IMG/VR virus record: IMGVR_UViG_2541047680_000003
DNA from: a virus
Lineage: Duplodnaviria; Heunggongvirae; Uroviricota; Caudoviricetes
Length of the DNA stretch: 5,317 nucleotides
Reading direction: 5' to 3' (one strand)
How positions within the stretch are numbered: the stretch's first letter is position 1; every line of letters starts with the position of its first letter. This document shows positions 1,619 to 5,317 of the stretch, in pieces. A program made the position numbers and the translations under genes. Below the pieces are notes generated by a model. That model worked only from the letters and a program-made list of their open reading frames with translations, had not been told where the DNA came from and ran no database searches.

Positions 1619-1648
1619 TTGACGTGTGCGTCGTTTTGACGGTAAAGT
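1619..1648 (+). promoter_or_regulatory. Sigma70-like promoter of the immunity leader (TTGACG -35 at 1619..1624, TAAAGT -10 at 1643..1648, 18-nt spacer)
   Basis: Hexamer match by eye. A second TTGACG at 1636..1641 has no good -10. No transcription start site data. Confidence 0.4.
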
Positions 1649-1680
1649 TACTACGCTGCGGTAAATCCCGCAGCCGGGAC

Positions 1681-1704
1681 TCTCAACCCCGAAATCCGAA
1701 CGAC
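1681..1704 (+). promoter_or_regulatory. Upstream antisense target boxes (seqA / a1-b1 analogue): TCTCAAC 1681..1687 and CCGAACGAC 1696..1704
   Basis: 1681..1687 is complementary to the single-stranded GUUGAGA of the ncRNA (1814..1820). 1696..1704 is complementary, with one G-U pair, to the 9-nt loop 1799..1807. The order and spacing fit antiparallel pairing. Confidence 0.5.
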
Positions 1705-1708
1705 GCAC

Positions 1709-1731
1709 AACACGCGCCAGCGTGTTTTTTT
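1709..1731 (+). terminator. Rho-independent terminator / attenuator in the immunity leader
   Basis: Stem AACACGC (1709..1715) and GCGTGTT (1720..1726), loop GCCA, with a run of seven T at 1725..1731. It sits between the upstream target boxes and the structured RNA. Confidence 0.65.
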
Positions 1732-1762
1732 GTGTGTATAAGCCTGCGCATATCCGAATTAT

Positions 1763-1838
1763 GGTAGCTCAGGCGGGGCAGCCGAAAGGCTGGCCGGTGT
1801 CGTTTGGGCCGGTGTTGAGAACCCCGCTTGGGCTACCA
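1763..1838 (+). ncRNA. Structured antisense immunity RNA of the P1 C4 / P4 CI / N15 CA type (tRNA-like; probably excised from the leader transcript)
   Basis: A 16-bp closing helix (1763..1778 with 1822..1837, two G-U pairs) encloses a GAAA-tetraloop hairpin (1779..1792) and a second hairpin (1793..1813, 9-nt loop), plus an 8-nt single strand GUUGAGAA (1814..1821). ACCA follows the helix at 1835..1838. The loop and single strand are complementary to boxes both upstream and downstream. No long ORF in 1518..1897. Confidence 0.6.
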
Positions 1839-1849
1839 CCCTATAGAGA

Positions 1850-1889
1850 TTCTCAACTCTGGTGGTAGCACTGTTCTTCCAAACAAGAG
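1850..1889 (+). promoter_or_regulatory. Downstream antisense target boxes (seqC / a2-b2 analogue) abutting the RBS of the first operon gene
   Basis: TTCTCAAC (1850..1857) is a perfect 8-nt complement of ncRNA 1814..1821. CCAAAC (1879..1884) is complementary to loop 1802..1807 and sits immediately before the AAGAG Shine-Dalgarno at 1885..1889. Confidence 0.5.
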
Positions 1890-1897
1890 TGCATACC

Positions 1898-2062
1898 ATG
1901 TTCAAATTCAAATTTGCGGCAGTCGTTCGCACAGACAAAAAGTCACACATCCATCATCTTTCCACTATCGCGTCATCTGAACGGGAAGCTCGTCGCCAGT
2001 TCGCCAGCCGGTTTGTCCTGGTATTGTCTGCCCGTATTCCGGTGCGCGAGGTGGCTGCATGA
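1898..2062 (+). CDS. Small protein (54 aa), first gene of the antirepressor operon; Icd-like by position only
   Basis: ATG 1898 with AAGAG RBS 8 nt upstream. The ORF track shows a longer 1862..2062 form, but that start would lie inside the RNA target region. The stop overlaps the next start as ATGA (2059..2062). Confidence 0.5.
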   Translation: MFKFKFAAVVRTDKKSHIHHLSTIASSEREARRQFASRFVLVLSARIPVREVAA

Positions 2063-2292
2063 ATCAGGTAAAAATGAACACTGTTGGCCTGCTGGAGTCG
2101 TTGGATGAACGTCTGGCTCAGGTCTATGCGCTCGTGTCATCAGCCCATCGGACAGTATCCAGCTGTGAGGCGTCGATTTATCTATCAGAAGCCGGGAAGC
2201 TCCTTCAAATTGCGTGTGAGCTAACACACGAAGCACAGGGGTATTCAGCATCTCTCTCGTCGCAATTGCAGCACAATAAGGAGGCCAAATGA
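2059..2292 (+). CDS. Hypothetical protein (77 aa), middle gene of the antirepressor operon (AntA-like by position)
   Basis: ATG 2059 overlaps the upstream stop (ATGA), with GAGG at about 2048..2051. Its own stop overlaps the next start (ATGA at 2289..2292). Confidence 0.6.
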   Translation: MNQVKMNTVGLLESLDERLAQVYALVSSAHRTVSSCEASIYLSEAGKLLQIACELTHEAQGYSASLSSQLQHNKEAK

Positions 2293-3071
2293 GCGCGTTA
2301 GCTGTATTTTCGTTTCAGGAAGAGCATCAGGTTCGTGTAGTGATGATTGATAGCGATCCGTGGTTTGTAGCGGCTGATGTTTGTAATGCCATCGGGATTA
2401 TCAATCATCGTGATGCTGTTGGTAAGTTGGATGAAGACGAAAAGGGGGTCGGTTCAACAGACACCCTTGGAGGTAAACAGGGAGTGACAATTATCAACGA
2501 ATCCGGCCTCTATACCCTAATCCTCCGCTGCCGTGATGCGGTGAAGCAAGGCACAACAGCTTGGCGGTTTCGCAAATGGGTAACGAACGAAGTCTTGCCC
2601 TCTATTCGCAAAAATGGAGAGTACGTTTACATCGAGCCTGAGCCAATGCGAGCAGCGGAGCCGTTGAACTGGAGGCAGAAAGAGTATCTGCGAGGGCTGA
2701 TTAACGATATAGCACAAAGTTTTCAATACCGAAATGCCTGGATTAGTGGTGTATGGTTGGCTTTGCGTCGGGCGTGTCGTAATCCATCCCCGAACCCCAT
2801 AACGGTTGATGATTTGCCAGCAATTACGGCAGAACTGCGCCGGATTTTGACGGCTGCTGAGTCGGCATTGGGGAACATGCGCACGTATGAACGAGAGTTG
2901 TTGCGTGATGTTGTTCGTGGGGGTAGGCGGAGTATGTCGTGTGGTGATTTACCCATCACCGATATTAACTCTGATCTGGAAAAGGCGTTACCCGCGCATT
3001 TTGAACTGGCAGTTCAAAAACTTGAGCAGTTATCCGCGCAGCTAAAGCCAGCAGAAATCACCAATAAATAG
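2289..3071 (+). CDS. ant: Phage antirepressor with an N-terminal Bro-N-type domain (260 aa)
   Basis: The N-terminal 110 residues (FSFQEEHQVRVVMIDSDPWFVAADVCNAIG ... ESGLYTLILRCRDAVKQGTTAWRFRKWVTNEVLPSIRKNGEY) fit the Bro-N / antirepressor N-terminal domain pattern as I remember it. Strong RBS AAGGAGG (2278..2284). Translationally coupled to the upstream gene. Confidence 0.8.
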   Translation: MSALAVFSFQEEHQVRVVMIDSDPWFVAADVCNAIGIINHRDAVGKLDEDEKGVGSTDTLGGKQGVTIINESGLYTLILRCRDAVKQGTTAWRFRKWVTNEVLPSIRKNGEYVYIEPEPMRAAEPLNWRQKEYLRGLINDIAQSFQYRNAWISGVWLALRRACRNPSPNPITVDDLPAITAELRRILTAAESALGNMRTYERELLRDVVRGGRRSMSCGDLPITDINSDLEKALPAHFELAVQKLEQLSAQLKPAEITNK

Positions 3072-3207
3072 GGTTGACCAGCCCGAATTTATGCCCTTCT
3101 TAGAGAAGGGAAGCCTCGCAGTCGGGGCGGTGATGTCTGTGGTTGCAGCCGCGTTTCCTCCGTTACTTCTGCCCTTTGCAGGGGGCAGGCGAGGTAGGTC
3201 ACACAAC

Positions 3208-3231
3208 AAGGCACCGTTAATTCGGTGCCTT
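3208..3231. terminator. Hairpin between the convergent ant operon and telN; candidate bidirectional terminator
   Basis: Stem AAGGCACCG (3208..3216) and CGGTGCCTT (3223..3231), loop TTAATT. Flanking T-rich or G/T-rich sequence on both strands is only moderate. It lies 12 nt from the telN stop. Confidence 0.5.
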
Positions 3232-3242
3232 TACTGTATGCT

Positions 3243-5126
3243 TTAACCGAAATATGTCAGCCATGCTAACTGCATTGCTGACATGGGGCTGTTTGCACTG
3301 CCGGACCACGCATAATTCTGGCCATTATAATGAAACTCGACAACGTATGAGCCATCACCAATATTTCTCACTGGCTTAAATACCGGCTTAGATACAGGCG
3401 AAGAAGGTGCAGGCGGTTGCTGTTCTTCTACGCTCTCTTCCTCTATCTCAATTTCGTCGTCATCCAGATCGTCATCCTCTGATAATTCATCCGCCAGTTC
3501 AGGTATTGCTTCCAGTTCTTCTTCGTCAGGCATAACGATTTCTGGAGTATCTATTTTCAGTTGCCATTGTCCGTTTTCGCCAACAAATTGCCCCAGAGCA
3601 TCAGCAGCAAATTCCAGGTATCGACTAATCATTGTTGGGCTAAATTTGAACGCTCTTAGAGTGCTGTTCGTGATTTTTATAGAGGGGTCCTGCTCTACCA
3701 GCTGCTTAACTGTGTTATGCAGACGAACCCCGGCATCTCCTCTGGCGAATCCAGGCATTTCGTCATCAAGCTGCTGCAATGCTTCCAGCCTGGTATTTTC
3801 GTTTCCAGTATTTGGCCTCCATGTCTTTGAGAAGTTGGCCAGCTTGAATTGCTTATAGTGTAATTGAGTGTTTTCATCGTCATGGCCTAAGATTTCCATA
3901 AAGAAAACATCCTCATCTACGTTTTTCCAACGAGGATCTACGCGGAAAAACATTTCATACGCAATACGGGCATAAATAGCACGACTATCTTTATAAACAC
4001 GGCGGTTATCTTTGAAAAATGATTTAACCCACGGGTTAAAAGCCTTTGCTAATATGGCATTAATACGTCCGTTTTCAGAGCGTGTGTCGTTATCTCCATA
4101 ACCTTTAACGACATCATCAAAATCAGATGCTGCTGGGCATGAGCGAAGTACATTTATTAAATAAACAAATGTTTTTGCTTCGCATAATGTATATATTTTT
4201 CTGGTTATATCATCAGAAGTTCTTTTTTTAGCTTGGCCTAAAAAATCAACGGTATACTTACCAGAAACAGTAAATGTACCTTGATACATAATCTCAATCA
4301 TTCGTCTTCCTGACAATGCAGCAAGTGCAAATGCCAAAGGAGCCATACCTGAACGAGTGTTTAGATTATTTAATGTAGCAGGGCTATTTATAATATCGTA
4401 AATAGCTTGCATATATTTAGGGTAATCAATGACCACCACGTTACGTTTCTTATTGTGCAGAACGTCCGCCCATCGTTGCTGGATAGATGCGCGTTCGGCA
4501 GGGCTTAGTTGAAGATGATAGAGAATCTCATGGTTAACTTTTAGCTGATTCAACTCCTCAAGCAAGGCAGATCCTTGCTGTAGTAATTTATATAAATAAT
4601 CGCGCTTATCTTTCCAGTTATCGCTAGTTAAATCAGAAATGGCGAATTGCCACTCTTTATATTTATTTGATAATTTTAATAACTTATTATGGCTTTTGTT
4701 ATCACCAATTCTGATATTAGATAAATCTTCTGATAAAGGGAGAATTAATTTTAATTTTGCCTGTAAAGCTGACATTCTCTGGCGAATATCGGCAGCAGGT
4801 AGAGAAAGCCATGACAATAGCTCCTCATTATATAAAGGATACTTTTCAGATAGGCGATGTATATTTTTTTCAAAGCTATGATGAAGTTTATCATCAAACC
4901 GTTTTCTGGCCCTGCTCATATATGCATTGAATGTGTTGGCTGTAATTCTTTTTTCTAATCCTTTCCCCCTAAACTTTCGCTTGTCATTAAATAATGCATT
5001 TTTAAATTTTAATGCAACAGCCTTTATTTTTTTTGTTTTTTCCCCTTGAGGACGGTCAGAGTTATCTATTGACTCAACATCGCTAACAAGTGAGTTTATT
5101 AATTCACCGATTTTTACTTTGCTCAT
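3243..5126 (-). CDS. telN: Protelomerase (telomere resolvase), TelN/TelK family, 627 aa
   Basis: Length and overall sequence match my recollection of N15 TelN (631 aa). Tyr424 in QLHYKQF coincides with the published TelN catalytic Tyr424 (TelK Tyr425). RR at 274..275 and K300 are in tyrosine-recombinase-like positions. An acidic D/E linker (residues about 533..570) precedes a small C-terminal domain. Strong RBS (GGAGAGG on the minus strand) before ATG. The gene is adjacent to a half telomere palindrome. Confidence 0.93.
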   Translation of the reverse strand: MSKVKIGELINSLVSDVESIDNSDRPQGEKTKKIKAVALKFKNALFNDKRKFRGKGLEKRITANTFNAYMSRARKRFDDKLHHSFEKNIHRLSEKYPLYNEELLSWLSLPAADIRQRMSALQAKLKLILPLSEDLSNIRIGDNKSHNKLLKLSNKYKEWQFAISDLTSDNWKDKRDYLYKLLQQGSALLEELNQLKVNHEILYHLQLSPAERASIQQRWADVLHNKKRNVVVIDYPKYMQAIYDIINSPATLNNLNTRSGMAPLAFALAALSGRRMIEIMYQGTFTVSGKYTVDFLGQAKKRTSDDITRKIYTLCEAKTFVYLINVLRSCPAASDFDDVVKGYGDNDTRSENGRINAILAKAFNPWVKSFFKDNRRVYKDSRAIYARIAYEMFFRVDPRWKNVDEDVFFMEILGHDDENTQLHYKQFKLANFSKTWRPNTGNENTRLEALQQLDDEMPGFARGDAGVRLHNTVKQLVEQDPSIKITNSTLRAFKFSPTMISRYLEFAADALGQFVGENGQWQLKIDTPEIVMPDEEELEAIPELADELSEDDDLDDDEIEIEEESVEEQQPPAPSSPVSKPVFKPVRNIGDGSYVVEFHYNGQNYAWSGSANSPMSAMQLAWLTYFG

Positions 5127-5249: not shown

Positions 5250-5290
5250 TATCGGAACGTTAAAAATTGTTCCTTGACTTTGTTCTGAAG

Positions 5291-5317
5291 ATCAGCACAT
5301 AATTCCCCATTATACGC
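5291..5317. other. Half of the telomere resolution palindrome (telO/telRL half-site); the window ends at the dyad centre, implying a hairpin telomere
   Basis: ATCAGCACATAATTCCCCATTATACGC differs at only about three positions from the left half of N15 telRL as I recall it (TATCAGCACACAATTGCCCATTATACGC|GCG...). The last bases CCATTATACGC equal the left half of the 22-bp telO palindrome. Confidence 0.8.

Follow-up and report, generated by a model that had tools for sequence, protein, structure and literature searches.

What is the stretch of DNA that precedes the icd, antA-like, and antB-like genes of N15-like linear plasmid prophages: a small gene or a regulatory RNA? Public phage-plasmid records either call it a protein or leave it blank, and the N15 record (U63086) labels the corresponding place "cA, secondary immunity repressor." The small processed RNA of N15 cA is known as the "CA RNA." We addressed this question in one such element, using a window of 5,317 nucleotides, by which we mean the whole stretch of DNA that was analyzed. 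A sequence-only reading of the window had proposed that positions 1619 to 1897 form a complete antisense-RNA immunity switch of the C4/CI type, with a promoter, an attenuator, a tRNA-like small RNA, and two sets of target boxes.

Switches of this kind have several precedents. The C4 antisense RNA of the immI operon of P1 and P7 was reportedly described by Citron and Schuster in 1990, and CI-dependent termination at P4 t1, together with RNase P processing, is said to have been reported by Hartmann in 1995, Forti in 1995, and Briani in 2000. P1, P7, P4, and N15 have structurally similar RNA systems, in which isrK is equivalent to seqA and C4 to CI (PMC3632133; PMC10111431). The P4 CI RNA pairs with seqA and seqC, which results in transcription termination (PMC4825925), and full repression of ant requires C4 (PMC8198154). 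For N15, the title of a study cited in PMC4488713 refers to a small processed RNA at the immA locus (Ravin, Svarchevsky and Deho 1999, Mol Microbiol 34:980).

Results

Location and family of the module

The 5.3 kb of the window correspond to the telomere-proximal end of an N15-like linear phage-plasmid and share 97.5% identity with Escherichia phage YDC107_1 and approximately 80% with N15. The window ends at the telRL cut site and encodes a protelomerase in which 4/4 TelK domains are present; the related sequences in E. coli were plasmid-borne in every case. The module occupies the position of the N15 immA locus, ahead of icd and of two genes that resemble antA and antB (Bro-N), respectively (Table 1). 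Gene order and protein identities place it among the N15-type immA loci, with icd, antA, and antB beside telN and the cA RNA region 5' of the operon. The icd-like product is 94% identical to its N15 counterpart, and the start of the 260-aa Bro-N gene overlaps the stop of the 77-aa gene (ATGA).

Two Rfam covariance models matched the module above their thresholds. The C4 model (RF01695) matched at 1757-1843 over its full length (model positions 1 to 87) with 74.4 bits (threshold, 45; E = 9.4e-14), a score within the range of its relatives (N15, 78.8 bits; P4, 74.9 bits; P1, 68.8 bits). The isrK model (RF01394), which describes a seqA-type leader with a terminator, matched at 1655-1730 with 56.9 bits (threshold, 50). 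The same pair of matches is found in N15, P4, and P1 in the same order as in the window, and the geometry is shared as well. The identification as a C4/CI-type module that had been made from the letters of the window is thus borne out.

Table 1. Features of the module and of the genes downstream of it
Feature	Position	Strand	Description
Sigma-70-type promoter	1619..1648	+	-35 TTGACG (1619-1624), 18-nt spacer, -10 TAAAGT (1643-1648); promoter scan, 9/12 match
Leader hairpin H1	1655..1674	+	GCUGCGG/CCGCAGC, 6-nt loop; within the isrK and c4-a1b1 matches
Leader hairpin H2	1675..1691	+	9-nt loop displays box a1 (UCUCAAC, 1681-1687); Rfam structure and fold of 1655-1731
Box b1	1696..1704	+	CCGAACGAC; single-stranded, ends 4 nt ahead of the terminator stem; partner is loop b'
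Intrinsic terminator (attenuator)	1709..1731	+	7-bp stem, GCCA loop, 7 U; scan, 1709-1726 and a 7-T run; isrK match has its 3' end here
Spacer and small-RNA 5' leader	1732..1762	+	Ends in CCGAAUUAU ahead of G1763
C4/CI/CA-type antisense RNA	1763..1840	+	3' end predicted within 1838-1841; closing helix of 16-17 bp, two hairpins, a' strand, A-CC tail at 3' end
Downstream hairpin	1832..1869	+	Arms GCUACCACC / GGUGGUAGC, inner AGAG/CUCU; loop displays box a2; -19.9 kcal/mol, z = -3.4
Box b2 and Shine-Dalgarno sequence of icd	1879..1889	+	CCAAAC (1879-1884) directly followed by AAGAG (1885-1889)
icd-like gene	1898..2062	+	54 aa, first gene of the controlled operon; ATG at 1898; NCBIfam phage_ICD_like, 67 bits (cut-off, 25)
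77-aa gene (antA position)	2059..2292	+	N15 gp31 homologue, 63% identity; start overlaps the icd stop (ATGA)
Bro-N gene (antB position)	2289..3071	+	260 aa; N15 gp30 homologue, 73% identity; Pfam Bro-N, 71 bits

Promoter, leader, and terminator

The promoter and the intrinsic terminator of the earlier proposal were both recovered by motif scans. Among 33 homologues, the -35 hexamer was invariant and the -10 hexamer nearly so, and in the alignment to the c4-a1b1 model, the -10 hexamer coincides with the annotated -10 of the P1 promoter P1c4/P51b. The isrK match starts 7 nt past the -10 hexamer in both the window and P1, and transcription is predicted to start near G1655.

The leader has the organization of an isrK/seqA RNA, with a pair of 5' hairpins ahead of an intrinsic terminator, and folding of 1655-1731 yielded three hairpins. 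In H1, both-sided changes were present in 4/7 pairs, and 100% of the cells were paired. The stem of the terminator and its T-run were almost invariant among the 33 homologues; this attenuator is the counterpart of the IsrK terminator, and we take it to be the counterpart of P4 t1 as well. Folds of 1655-1731 and of 1705-1735 contained no antiterminator that competes with the hairpin at 1709-1726 and could account for increased termination upon pairing at b1.

The Rfam c4-a1b1 model (RF03163) gave 28.3 bits, compared to a gathering threshold of 46.7, a shortfall that reflects a P1-centered model rather than missing boxes, because the isrK match covers the same stretch. N15 (42.4 bits) and P4 (44.1 bits) were also below this threshold, and P1 alone passed it (51.0 bits).

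The promoter spacer at 1625-1635 (TGTGCGTCGTT) is a perfect complement to 1699-1709 (b1 and the base of the terminator) and was considered as an anti-attenuator for transcripts arriving from upstream. The pairing is not conserved (27 distinct combinations; cognate mean, 6.65; permuted mean, 6.56; p = 0.47), and the candidate was rejected.

Structure and processing of the small RNA

The 76-nt segment 1763-1838 folded with an energy of -50.9 kcal/mol (z = -5.89), which none of 200 shuffled sequences equaled, and its lowest-energy fold is identical to the C4-class structure, with a long helix, two hairpins, and a junction strand. The closing helix has 16 bp (14 Watson-Crick and 2 G-U), to which Rfam adds the pair U1762-A1838, giving 17 bp. 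The first hairpin (1779-1792) has 5 bp and a GAAA loop, and the second (1793-1813) has 6 bp and a 9-nt loop, b' (GUCGUUUGG, 1799-1807); the single strand at the junction, a', comprises 8 nt (GUUGAGAA, 1814-1821). This is the architecture that had been drawn from the sequence, including the GNRA hairpin. One detail was misread: the helix was said to be followed by ACCA; however, the bases that follow its 16 bp are ACCC (1838-1841), and the "ACCA" at 1835-1838 contains three bases of the helix.

The 5' ends of C4 and CI are made by RNase P processing. The sequence here is compatible with such cleavage: position -1 is a U, the G at position +1 pairs with C1837, and A-C-C comes next, as in the 3' end of a tRNA; these tRNA-like features suggest that RNase P cuts between U1762 and G1763. 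N15-like leaders and P1 share the conserved 5' flank AAUUAU-GG. ARAGORN found no tRNA gene or tRNA-derived attachment site.

Two alternative structures are predicted. The hairpin at 1832-1869 competes with the C4 fold because the 3' strand of the C4 helix doubles as the 5' arm of this hairpin; both of its arms are invariant in the homologues, and covariation is therefore uninformative for this hairpin. In addition, when the unprocessed leader was folded, the predicted minimum-energy structure (-113.2 kcal/mol) had a1/b1 paired in cis with a'/b', and the leader with an intact C4 domain was less stable (-109.1 kcal/mol). The greater predicted stability of the cis-paired fold suggests that release of the small RNA may depend on cotranscriptional folding.

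Target boxes

As in the C4 class, a' and b' are each complementary to one upstream and one downstream box, and the most downstream box is located at the ribosome-binding site that serves the first gene. Strand a' pairs over 7 bp with box a1 (UCUCAAC, 1681-1687), which sits in the loop of the hairpin at 1675-1691, and over 8 bp with box a2 (UUCUCAAC, 1850-1857), which lies in the loop of the hairpin at 1832-1869. Loop b' pairs with b1 over 9 bp, including one G-U (-17.4 kcal/mol), and this duplex can be extended to 12 bp with 3 G-U pairs (1695-1706). The pairing of b' with b2 comprises 6 bp only and, in the b type of the window, leaves the Shine-Dalgarno sequence outside the box; in other b types, the b2 box takes in the GGAG of the Shine-Dalgarno sequence. 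Duplex energies were used at the level of the boxes only, as folding the whole C4 and leader molecules together opens the structures of both and gives no meaningful result.

All four boxes were thus present where the sequence-only reading had placed them, and the box at 1879-1884 does abut the Shine-Dalgarno sequence, with AAGAG at 1885-1889 and the ATG at 1898. Dinucleotide shuffling of the two flanks gave p values of 0.006 (1681-1687), 0.014 (1696-1704), 0.002 (1850-1857), and 0.13 (1879-1884) for the single boxes, and the four boxes were jointly reproduced in 0/20,000 flank shuffles. At p = 0.13, the downstream loop box, b2, is therefore not significant alone, and this part of the four-box claim is weak.

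On the plus strand of the window, no match to a' or b' of at least 7 nt was found beyond the known boxes. Minus-strand (telN-sense) RNA contains two 7-nt matches, at 3827 and 5169, a number equal to the chance expectation. The hairpin at 1655-1674, the placement of a1 in the loop of 1675-1691, and that of a2 in the loop of 1832-1869 had not been part of the sequence-only reading.

Covariation among N15-like leaders

For comparison, we used 33 distinct homologous leaders, obtained from 48 viral contigs. Loop b' and strand a' were complementary to both the upstream and the downstream boxes in 33/33 leaders, and this complementarity was kept across approximately 7 loop (b) types and 5 single-strand (a) types. 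In the alignment, the box pairing constitutes a three-way compensatory variation. Both-sided changes were observed in 6/8 pairs of a'-a1, 5/8 pairs of a'-a2, and 5/9 pairs of b'-b1, the last despite indels. The observed covariation was reached by none of 500 shuffles, and when the pairing registers were shifted by 1 to 3 columns, the paired share fell to 30 to 49%. For the a boxes, mean pairing was 7.1 to 7.3 for cognate combinations and 3.9 to 4.0 for noncognate combinations.

The helices of the small RNA itself were 99 to 100% paired (32 distinct sequences); the GAAA hairpin showed both-sided changes in 4/5 pairs, and the closing helix varied mostly on one side. With 5 a types and 7 b types, 14 of 35 possible a-by-b combinations were seen in the 33 leaders.

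Discussion

In this study, we have examined the region ahead of the icd gene of an N15-like linear plasmid prophage. We conclude, with a probability of about 0.9, that positions 1619 to 1897 are the control region of a secondary-immunity (anti-immunity, immA-type) operon and belong to the family of processed antisense RNAs that includes P1 C4, P4 CI, and N15 CA. The analysis shows to which family the module belongs, how it folds, where its boxes lie, and that they have coevolved, and it identifies the promoter and terminator motifs and the genes. By analogy with the characterized relatives, the RNA would be processed, would block translation with polar effects downstream, and would enhance termination.

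We postulate that transcription starts near 1655 from the sigma-70 promoter (1619-1648) and that the leader folds as two hairpins, the second of which would present a1, with single-stranded b1 next and the terminator (1709-1731) after it. Some transcripts would stop at the terminator, yielding an IsrK/seqA-like RNA of approximately 75 nt. Read-through transcripts would contain the tRNA-like element (1763 to approximately 1840), which RNase P probably frees at U1762/G1763, with 3' trimming to follow. The b' loop and a' strand of the mature RNA would then pair with a2 and b2 upstream of icd and block ribosome binding; because stop and start codons overlap as ATGA, and through polarity, expression of the antA-like and Bro-N genes would be prevented as well. 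The cell-division inhibitor and antirepressor genes of the prophage would thereby be held silent. Pairing of the small RNA with nascent a1/b1 would promote termination at the attenuator, thereby limiting both its own synthesis and read-through.

The nearest characterized relative is N15, also a linear plasmid prophage with a protelomerase, in which the module lies between a gp33-like gene and icd, antA, antB, and telN. The two modules are approximately 80% identical in nucleotide sequence (N15 isrK score, 62.4 bits), and a' (GUUGAGAA), a1, and a2 are identical. However, loop b' is CUUCUUGUA in N15 and GUCGUUUGG in the window, with b1 and b2 changed to match; therefore, a different or partly overlapping specificity is expected. 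The stem of the GAAA hairpin has diverged through compensatory changes, and the AntA-like and AntB-like products are 63% and 73% identical, respectively.

The likeness extends to P1, whose annotation (NC_005856) lists a promoter, a1 in a hairpin loop, b1, a terminator-like hairpin, a 77-nt C4, a2, b2, icd, and an antirepressor. In P1, b2 is located where ribosomes bind ahead of icd; the 3' boxes are the partners of loop b' and the 5' boxes those of single strand a', the same geometry as in the window. The AAUUAU-GG 5' flank and the ACC 3' tail are common to both. Unlike the window, P1 has other box sequences, an isrK score of just 35 bits, a longer terminator-like hairpin, and two promoters plus a C1 operator; in the window, no operator for a repressor was found. 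The antirepressor of P1 is Ant1/Ant2, whereas the window encodes the 77-aa protein and the Bro-N protein.

P4 (isrK score, 60.8 bits) shares the order of upstream and downstream boxes and has an intrinsic terminator between seqA and cI. The loop box on the downstream side overlaps a GGAGG that belongs to an Icd-like reading frame (50% identical), and the P4 a' (UUCUCAC) equals one of the a types of the N15-like leaders. P4 is an integrating satellite, however, in which the distance from terminator to RNA is approximately 105 nt, compared to 31 nt in the window, and its immunity is described as premature transcription termination of the replication operon rather than antirepressor control (PMC4825925; PMC10111431).

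A fourth system, IsrK/STnc1160 of Gifsy-1, likewise has a two-hairpin leader RNA with a terminator, read-through to a processed RNA at the C4 position (STnc1160), an antirepressor-like gene on the 3' side, and a predicted alternative long-range pairing of leader and C4 segment (PMC4825925). There, however, the short leader RNA was reported to bind Hfq and to act in trans as an activator, raising anrP translation more than 100-fold, and the stretch at the C4 position was handled as an open reading frame (orf45) (PMC4825925). It is conceivable, although we consider it doubtful, that the module studied here is mainly an inducer, the terminated leader RNA (1655-1731, with a1 and b1) activating in trans by pairing with the C4 segment of read-through transcripts or with free C4, so that the downstream genes become open to translation. 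The above-threshold isrK match is consistent with such positive control, and the predicted cis pairing of a1/b1 with a'/b' in the full leader resembles IsrK "structure A." On the other hand, N15, P1, and P4 have all been described as systems in which the processed RNA exerts negative control, and a pure activator would not need the boxes at the ribosome-binding site, a2 and b2, to covary with the small RNA, as they do. A leader RNA acting as a decoy would, moreover, be compatible with repression because it presupposes a repressor to titrate. We know of no IsrK-like trans-activator activity in N15-type elements.

The predicted advantage of approximately 4 kcal/mol for the cis-paired fold, together with the competition between the downstream hairpin and the closing helix, might also indicate that a1/b1 and a2/b2 pair only internally and steer the folding and processing of the precursor without any repression in trans. 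We regard this as improbable: the same two C4 segments serve both box sets, which cannot be occupied in cis simultaneously, b2 lies at the ribosome-binding site and includes the Shine-Dalgarno sequence in other types, and action in trans is established for the homologous RNAs of P1 and P4.

There is very little to commend a protein-coding reading with incidental RNA structure, even though GenBank and RefSeq carry the labels "cA secondary immunity repressor," "putative secondary immunity repressor," and "ash family protein" and a 48-aa open reading frame (1722-1868) scores 26.4 bits with Pfam Phage_ASH (cut-off, 26), since that match covers 16 profile positions only, located on the 5' portion of the RNA, the frame starts at a GTG within the terminator stem, no frame is kept in homologues (the C4 stretch measures 75, 76, or 77 nt, and 1722-1897 corresponds to 167 to 179 nt), the compensatory substitutions in the helices and with distant boxes are not predicted by coding constraint, and pPEC1013-3 has no PGAP coding sequence at this stretch.

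Returning to the repressor module, we tentatively suggest a two-key form of addressing with a built-in decoy, in which the a and b specificities assort independently and the abundant terminated a1/b1 leader RNA would titrate the small RNA; we would not rate this elaboration as probable. If the two-key reading is correct, the number of matching keys would decide whether repression of coresident or superinfecting relatives is full, partial, or absent. If the leader RNA is a decoy, its titration of the small RNA, a role that IsrK may likewise play in Gifsy-1, would produce a threshold response. The literature searched contained no demonstration of graded cross-immunity or of a decoy role for N15-type elements.

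In conclusion, the kind of module is already known from P1 C4, P4 CI, and the small processed RNA of N15 immA; it opens no new kind of mechanism, and the copy described here is a new specificity variant. For annotation, the evidence points to an RNA switch with defined boundaries and boxes at a place where public records have a protein or nothing. The box types can be read from the sequence and would allow cross-repression of antirepressor operons among N15-like prophages to be predicted, a prediction of cross-immunity that bears on the coexistence of telomere phages in Escherichia and Klebsiella.

Fold, family and target boxes of the small RNA

At 1763-1838, a 16-bp helix encloses two hairpins, one of 5 bp with a GAAA loop and one of 6 bp with loop GUCGUUUGG, together with a single strand, GUUGAGAA. 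RNA folding (-50.9 kcal/mol, 5.9 SD below shuffles) reproduced the structure described in an earlier sequence-only reading, whose coordinates agree with the sequence at each point. In the covariance-model search proposed there as a check, Rfam placed a C4 antisense RNA at 1757-1843 on the plus strand (74.4 bits; threshold, 45) and isrK at 1655-1730 (56.9 bits; threshold, 50); c4-a1b1, at 1642-1695 on the same strand, scored 28.3 bits, under its 46.7 threshold. Rfam also adds the pair U1762-A1838 to the closing helix. The helix had been said to be followed by ACCA; the bases after its 16 bp are A-C-C-C, like a tRNA discriminator plus CC. No tRNA was called, and a tRNA identity was rejected. Phages N15, P4 and P1 give the same Rfam matches in the same order, in agreement with the proposed C4/CI-type switch; both the observation and its interpretation were right.

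Annotations in the P1 reference record cover a1, b1, c4 (77 nt), a2, b2 and icd. In the P1 sequence, the hairpin loop corresponds to b' and the junction strand to a', the a box precedes the b box on each side, and b2 falls on the icd ribosome-binding site; the P1 names can therefore be assigned in the window. All four boxes pair where the sequence-only reading had placed them, with b2 weak on its own. In dinucleotide shuffles of the flanks, single boxes recurred at p = 0.006, 0.014, 0.002 and 0.13, and all four jointly in 0 of 20,000. Duplex energies were -8.5 (a'-a1), -17.4 (b'-b1, extended), -8.5 (a'-a2) and -8.3 kcal/mol (b'-b2); the upstream site is therefore predicted to be stronger than the downstream one in this b type. 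The sequence-only reading had missed H1 and the hairpins that present a1 and a2; in the a2 hairpin, the 5' arm is also the 3' strand of the closing helix of the small RNA.

Features of the antisense module and the genes that follow it
Feature	Position	Description
Promoter-like site		TTGACG, 18-nt spacer, TAAAGT (promoter scan)
Leader hairpin H1	1655-1674	
a1 hairpin	1675-1691	9-nt loop holds a1
a1	1681-1687	7 bp with a'
b1	1696-1704	9 bp with b', one G-U
Terminator		7-bp stem, 7 T (terminator scan)
b'	1799-1807	hairpin loop
a'	1814-1821	junction single strand
Downstream hairpin	1832-1840 with 1861-1869	inner AGAG/CUCU; loop holds a2
a2	1850-1857	8 bp with a'
b2	1879-1884	6 bp with b'
icd-like ORF	1898-2062	first gene; NCBIfam, 67 bits; 94% identity to N15 product
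77-aa gene		second gene; 63% identity to N15 gp31
260-aa Bro-N gene		third gene; 73% identity to N15 gp30

Scans recovered both a promoter-like site and the intrinsic terminator, as had been proposed. The c4-a1b1 alignment puts the window's -10 hexamer on the annotated -10 of the P1 promoter P1c4 (P51b), and the isrK model begins 7 nt past the -10 in the window and P1 alike; these alignments support a transcription start near 1655. Positions 1625-1635, in the promoter spacer, are the perfect 11-nt complement of 1699-1709 (b1 and the terminator foot), which would rarely arise by chance in 311 nt; as a family feature this was rejected, since 27 related spacer/b1 combinations showed no covariation (p = 0.47). 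Immediately upstream of the promoter, at 1579-1598, an 8-bp G+C-rich hairpin (CCCCGUGA / UCACGGGG) precedes UAAAAUGUCUUUU. This hairpin, which drew no call from the terminator scan, probably terminates the upstream replication-side operon and would keep the immA promoter insulated.

The three genes of the N15 operon are named icd, antA and antB in a review of telomere phages (PMC4488713). ATGA overlaps at both gene junctions in the window fit translational coupling. Where the Bro-N gene and telN converge, the 170 nt that separate them (3085-3234) are highly structured (-64.3 kcal/mol, z = -4.1), match no Rfam family and finish with the hairpin GGCACCG-UUAAUU-CGGUGCC and then UUU, probably a two-way terminator.

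Covariation among homologous leaders

The boxes co-evolve with the small RNA. Scanning viral contigs with the Icd protein yielded 48 loci and 33 distinct leaders, the window included, and in all 33 there is a complementary box both upstream and downstream for the loop and likewise for the single strand. There are five a' types (GUUGAGA, UUGCGA, UUCCUAC, UUCUCAC and GUUCCAA) and about seven b' types, in 14 of the 35 possible combinations. On a MAFFT alignment, compensatory change, another check suggested by the sequence-only reading, had altered both sides of 6 of 8 pairs in a'-a1, 5 of 8 in a'-a2, 5 of 9 in b'-b1 (where the alignment has indels), 4 of 5 in the GAAA hairpin and 4 of 7 in H1. 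The observed covariation score was reached by none of 500 column shuffles, and sliding the partners by 1 to 3 columns reduced pairing from 93% to 30-49%. Mean a pairing was 7.1-7.3 for cognate versus 3.9-4.0 for noncognate partners; the b types have common cores and so separate less cleanly. The terminator and the arms of the downstream hairpin hardly vary among homologues and are uninformative on covariation.

An ORF over the C4 RNA (1722-1868, 48 aa) matches Pfam Phage_ASH (PF10554) at 26.4 bits (cut-off, 26); the 16 profile positions matched fall on the 5' portion of the RNA. A CDS is annotated there in several records; a protein gene was rejected, since homologue lengths differ by non-multiples of three and substitutions are compensatory for RNA pairing. 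RefSeq and PLSDB name such ORFs "ash family protein," and part of the Phage_ASH family may reflect conservation of RNA, not protein. In about 1,400 conjugative Escherichia/Salmonella plasmids, the C4 core alone (window 1760-1840) is matched over 80 nt at 77% identity, and the matching stretch is often labelled "ash family protein" (hits H80-H129 in the plasmid collection).

Origin of the window

Escherichia phage YDC107_1 (genus Ravinvirus) is 97.5% identical to the window across 1500-2300, and N15 is about 80% identical. The minus strand encodes a protelomerase of 627 aa in which the four TelK domains are all present, the final base coincides with the point at which the N15 telRL palindrome is cut (...CCATTATACGC / GCGTATAATGG; N15 24802/3), and among complete Escherichia coli genomes related DNA occurs in 17 of 5426, on plasmids only. 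The window therefore represents the 5.3 kb nearest the telomere, the hairpin end, of an N15-like linear plasmid prophage. Its last segment, 5290-5317, stops exactly on the centre of the telomere-resolution palindrome, and the reverse complement begins GCGTATAATGG... The YDC107_1 record (CP025712.1) has two inverted icd-region copies, at 33274-33474 and 40012-40173, symmetric about a point just past telN, and several "complete" records have similar duplicates, including IMG/VR contigs such as UViG_3300045988_113976 (loci L005/L007). These look like palindromic duplications created when assembly read through the hairpin telomere, not like real biology.

Discussion

In the window and its relatives, we have established the family membership, fold, boxes, box co-evolution, promoter and terminator motifs, and gene content of this module. 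RNase P generates the 5' ends of both C4 and CI, and P4 CI raises termination at the intrinsic terminator t1. By analogy with P1, P4 and N15, the leader would be transcribed constitutively, a share of transcripts stopping at 1727-1731; RNase P would cleave read-through RNA at U1762/G1763, with trimming of the 3' end to follow. The mature RNA on a2/b2 would block icd initiation, and the antA-like and Bro-N genes would be silenced along with icd via coupling and polarity. On a1/b1 of nascent leaders, it would increase termination at the attenuator and so autoregulate. In P4, termination is caused by CI pairing with seqA and seqC (PMC4825925), and the transcript is terminated quickly via CI/seqA interactions (PMC10111431); in P1, C4 is required for full ant repression (PMC8198154). 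No antiterminator that could explain termination raised by b1 pairing was found in the leader folds; that the b'-b1 duplex acts by stacking, its end being about 2 nt away from the terminator stem, is only a guess.

In the unprocessed leader, pairing of a1/b1 with a'/b' in cis is predicted to be preferred (-113.2 kcal/mol, versus -109.1 with an intact C4 domain). This predicted fold resembles "structure A" of the isrK locus of Gifsy-1, a Salmonella prophage, where the short leader RNA is a trans activator (PMC4825925). A role for the terminated leader RNA as a decoy or activator is therefore a live alternative, and one that could operate alongside repression by the C4-type RNA.

The module type has been characterized since the 1990s, and the N15 orthologue has been studied directly. 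The isrK and C4 models detect the P4 seqA and CI elements, and the P1, P7 and N15 systems are structurally similar (PMC10111431; PMC3632133). In P4 (locus L053, NC_001609), a reading frame after seqC (1201-1356) shares 50% identity with the Icd protein of the window; by sequence, therefore, the homology of the P4 module to those of N15/P1 reaches into the first gene. The P4 frame occupies the kil / truncated Eta position, inside the older "cI gene product" CDS. In conclusion, the module type is already known and present in Rfam, and the window's copy is a further member, with a loop specificity that differs from that of N15. The only modestly new point is that the two specificity boxes assort independently among N15-like phage-plasmids.
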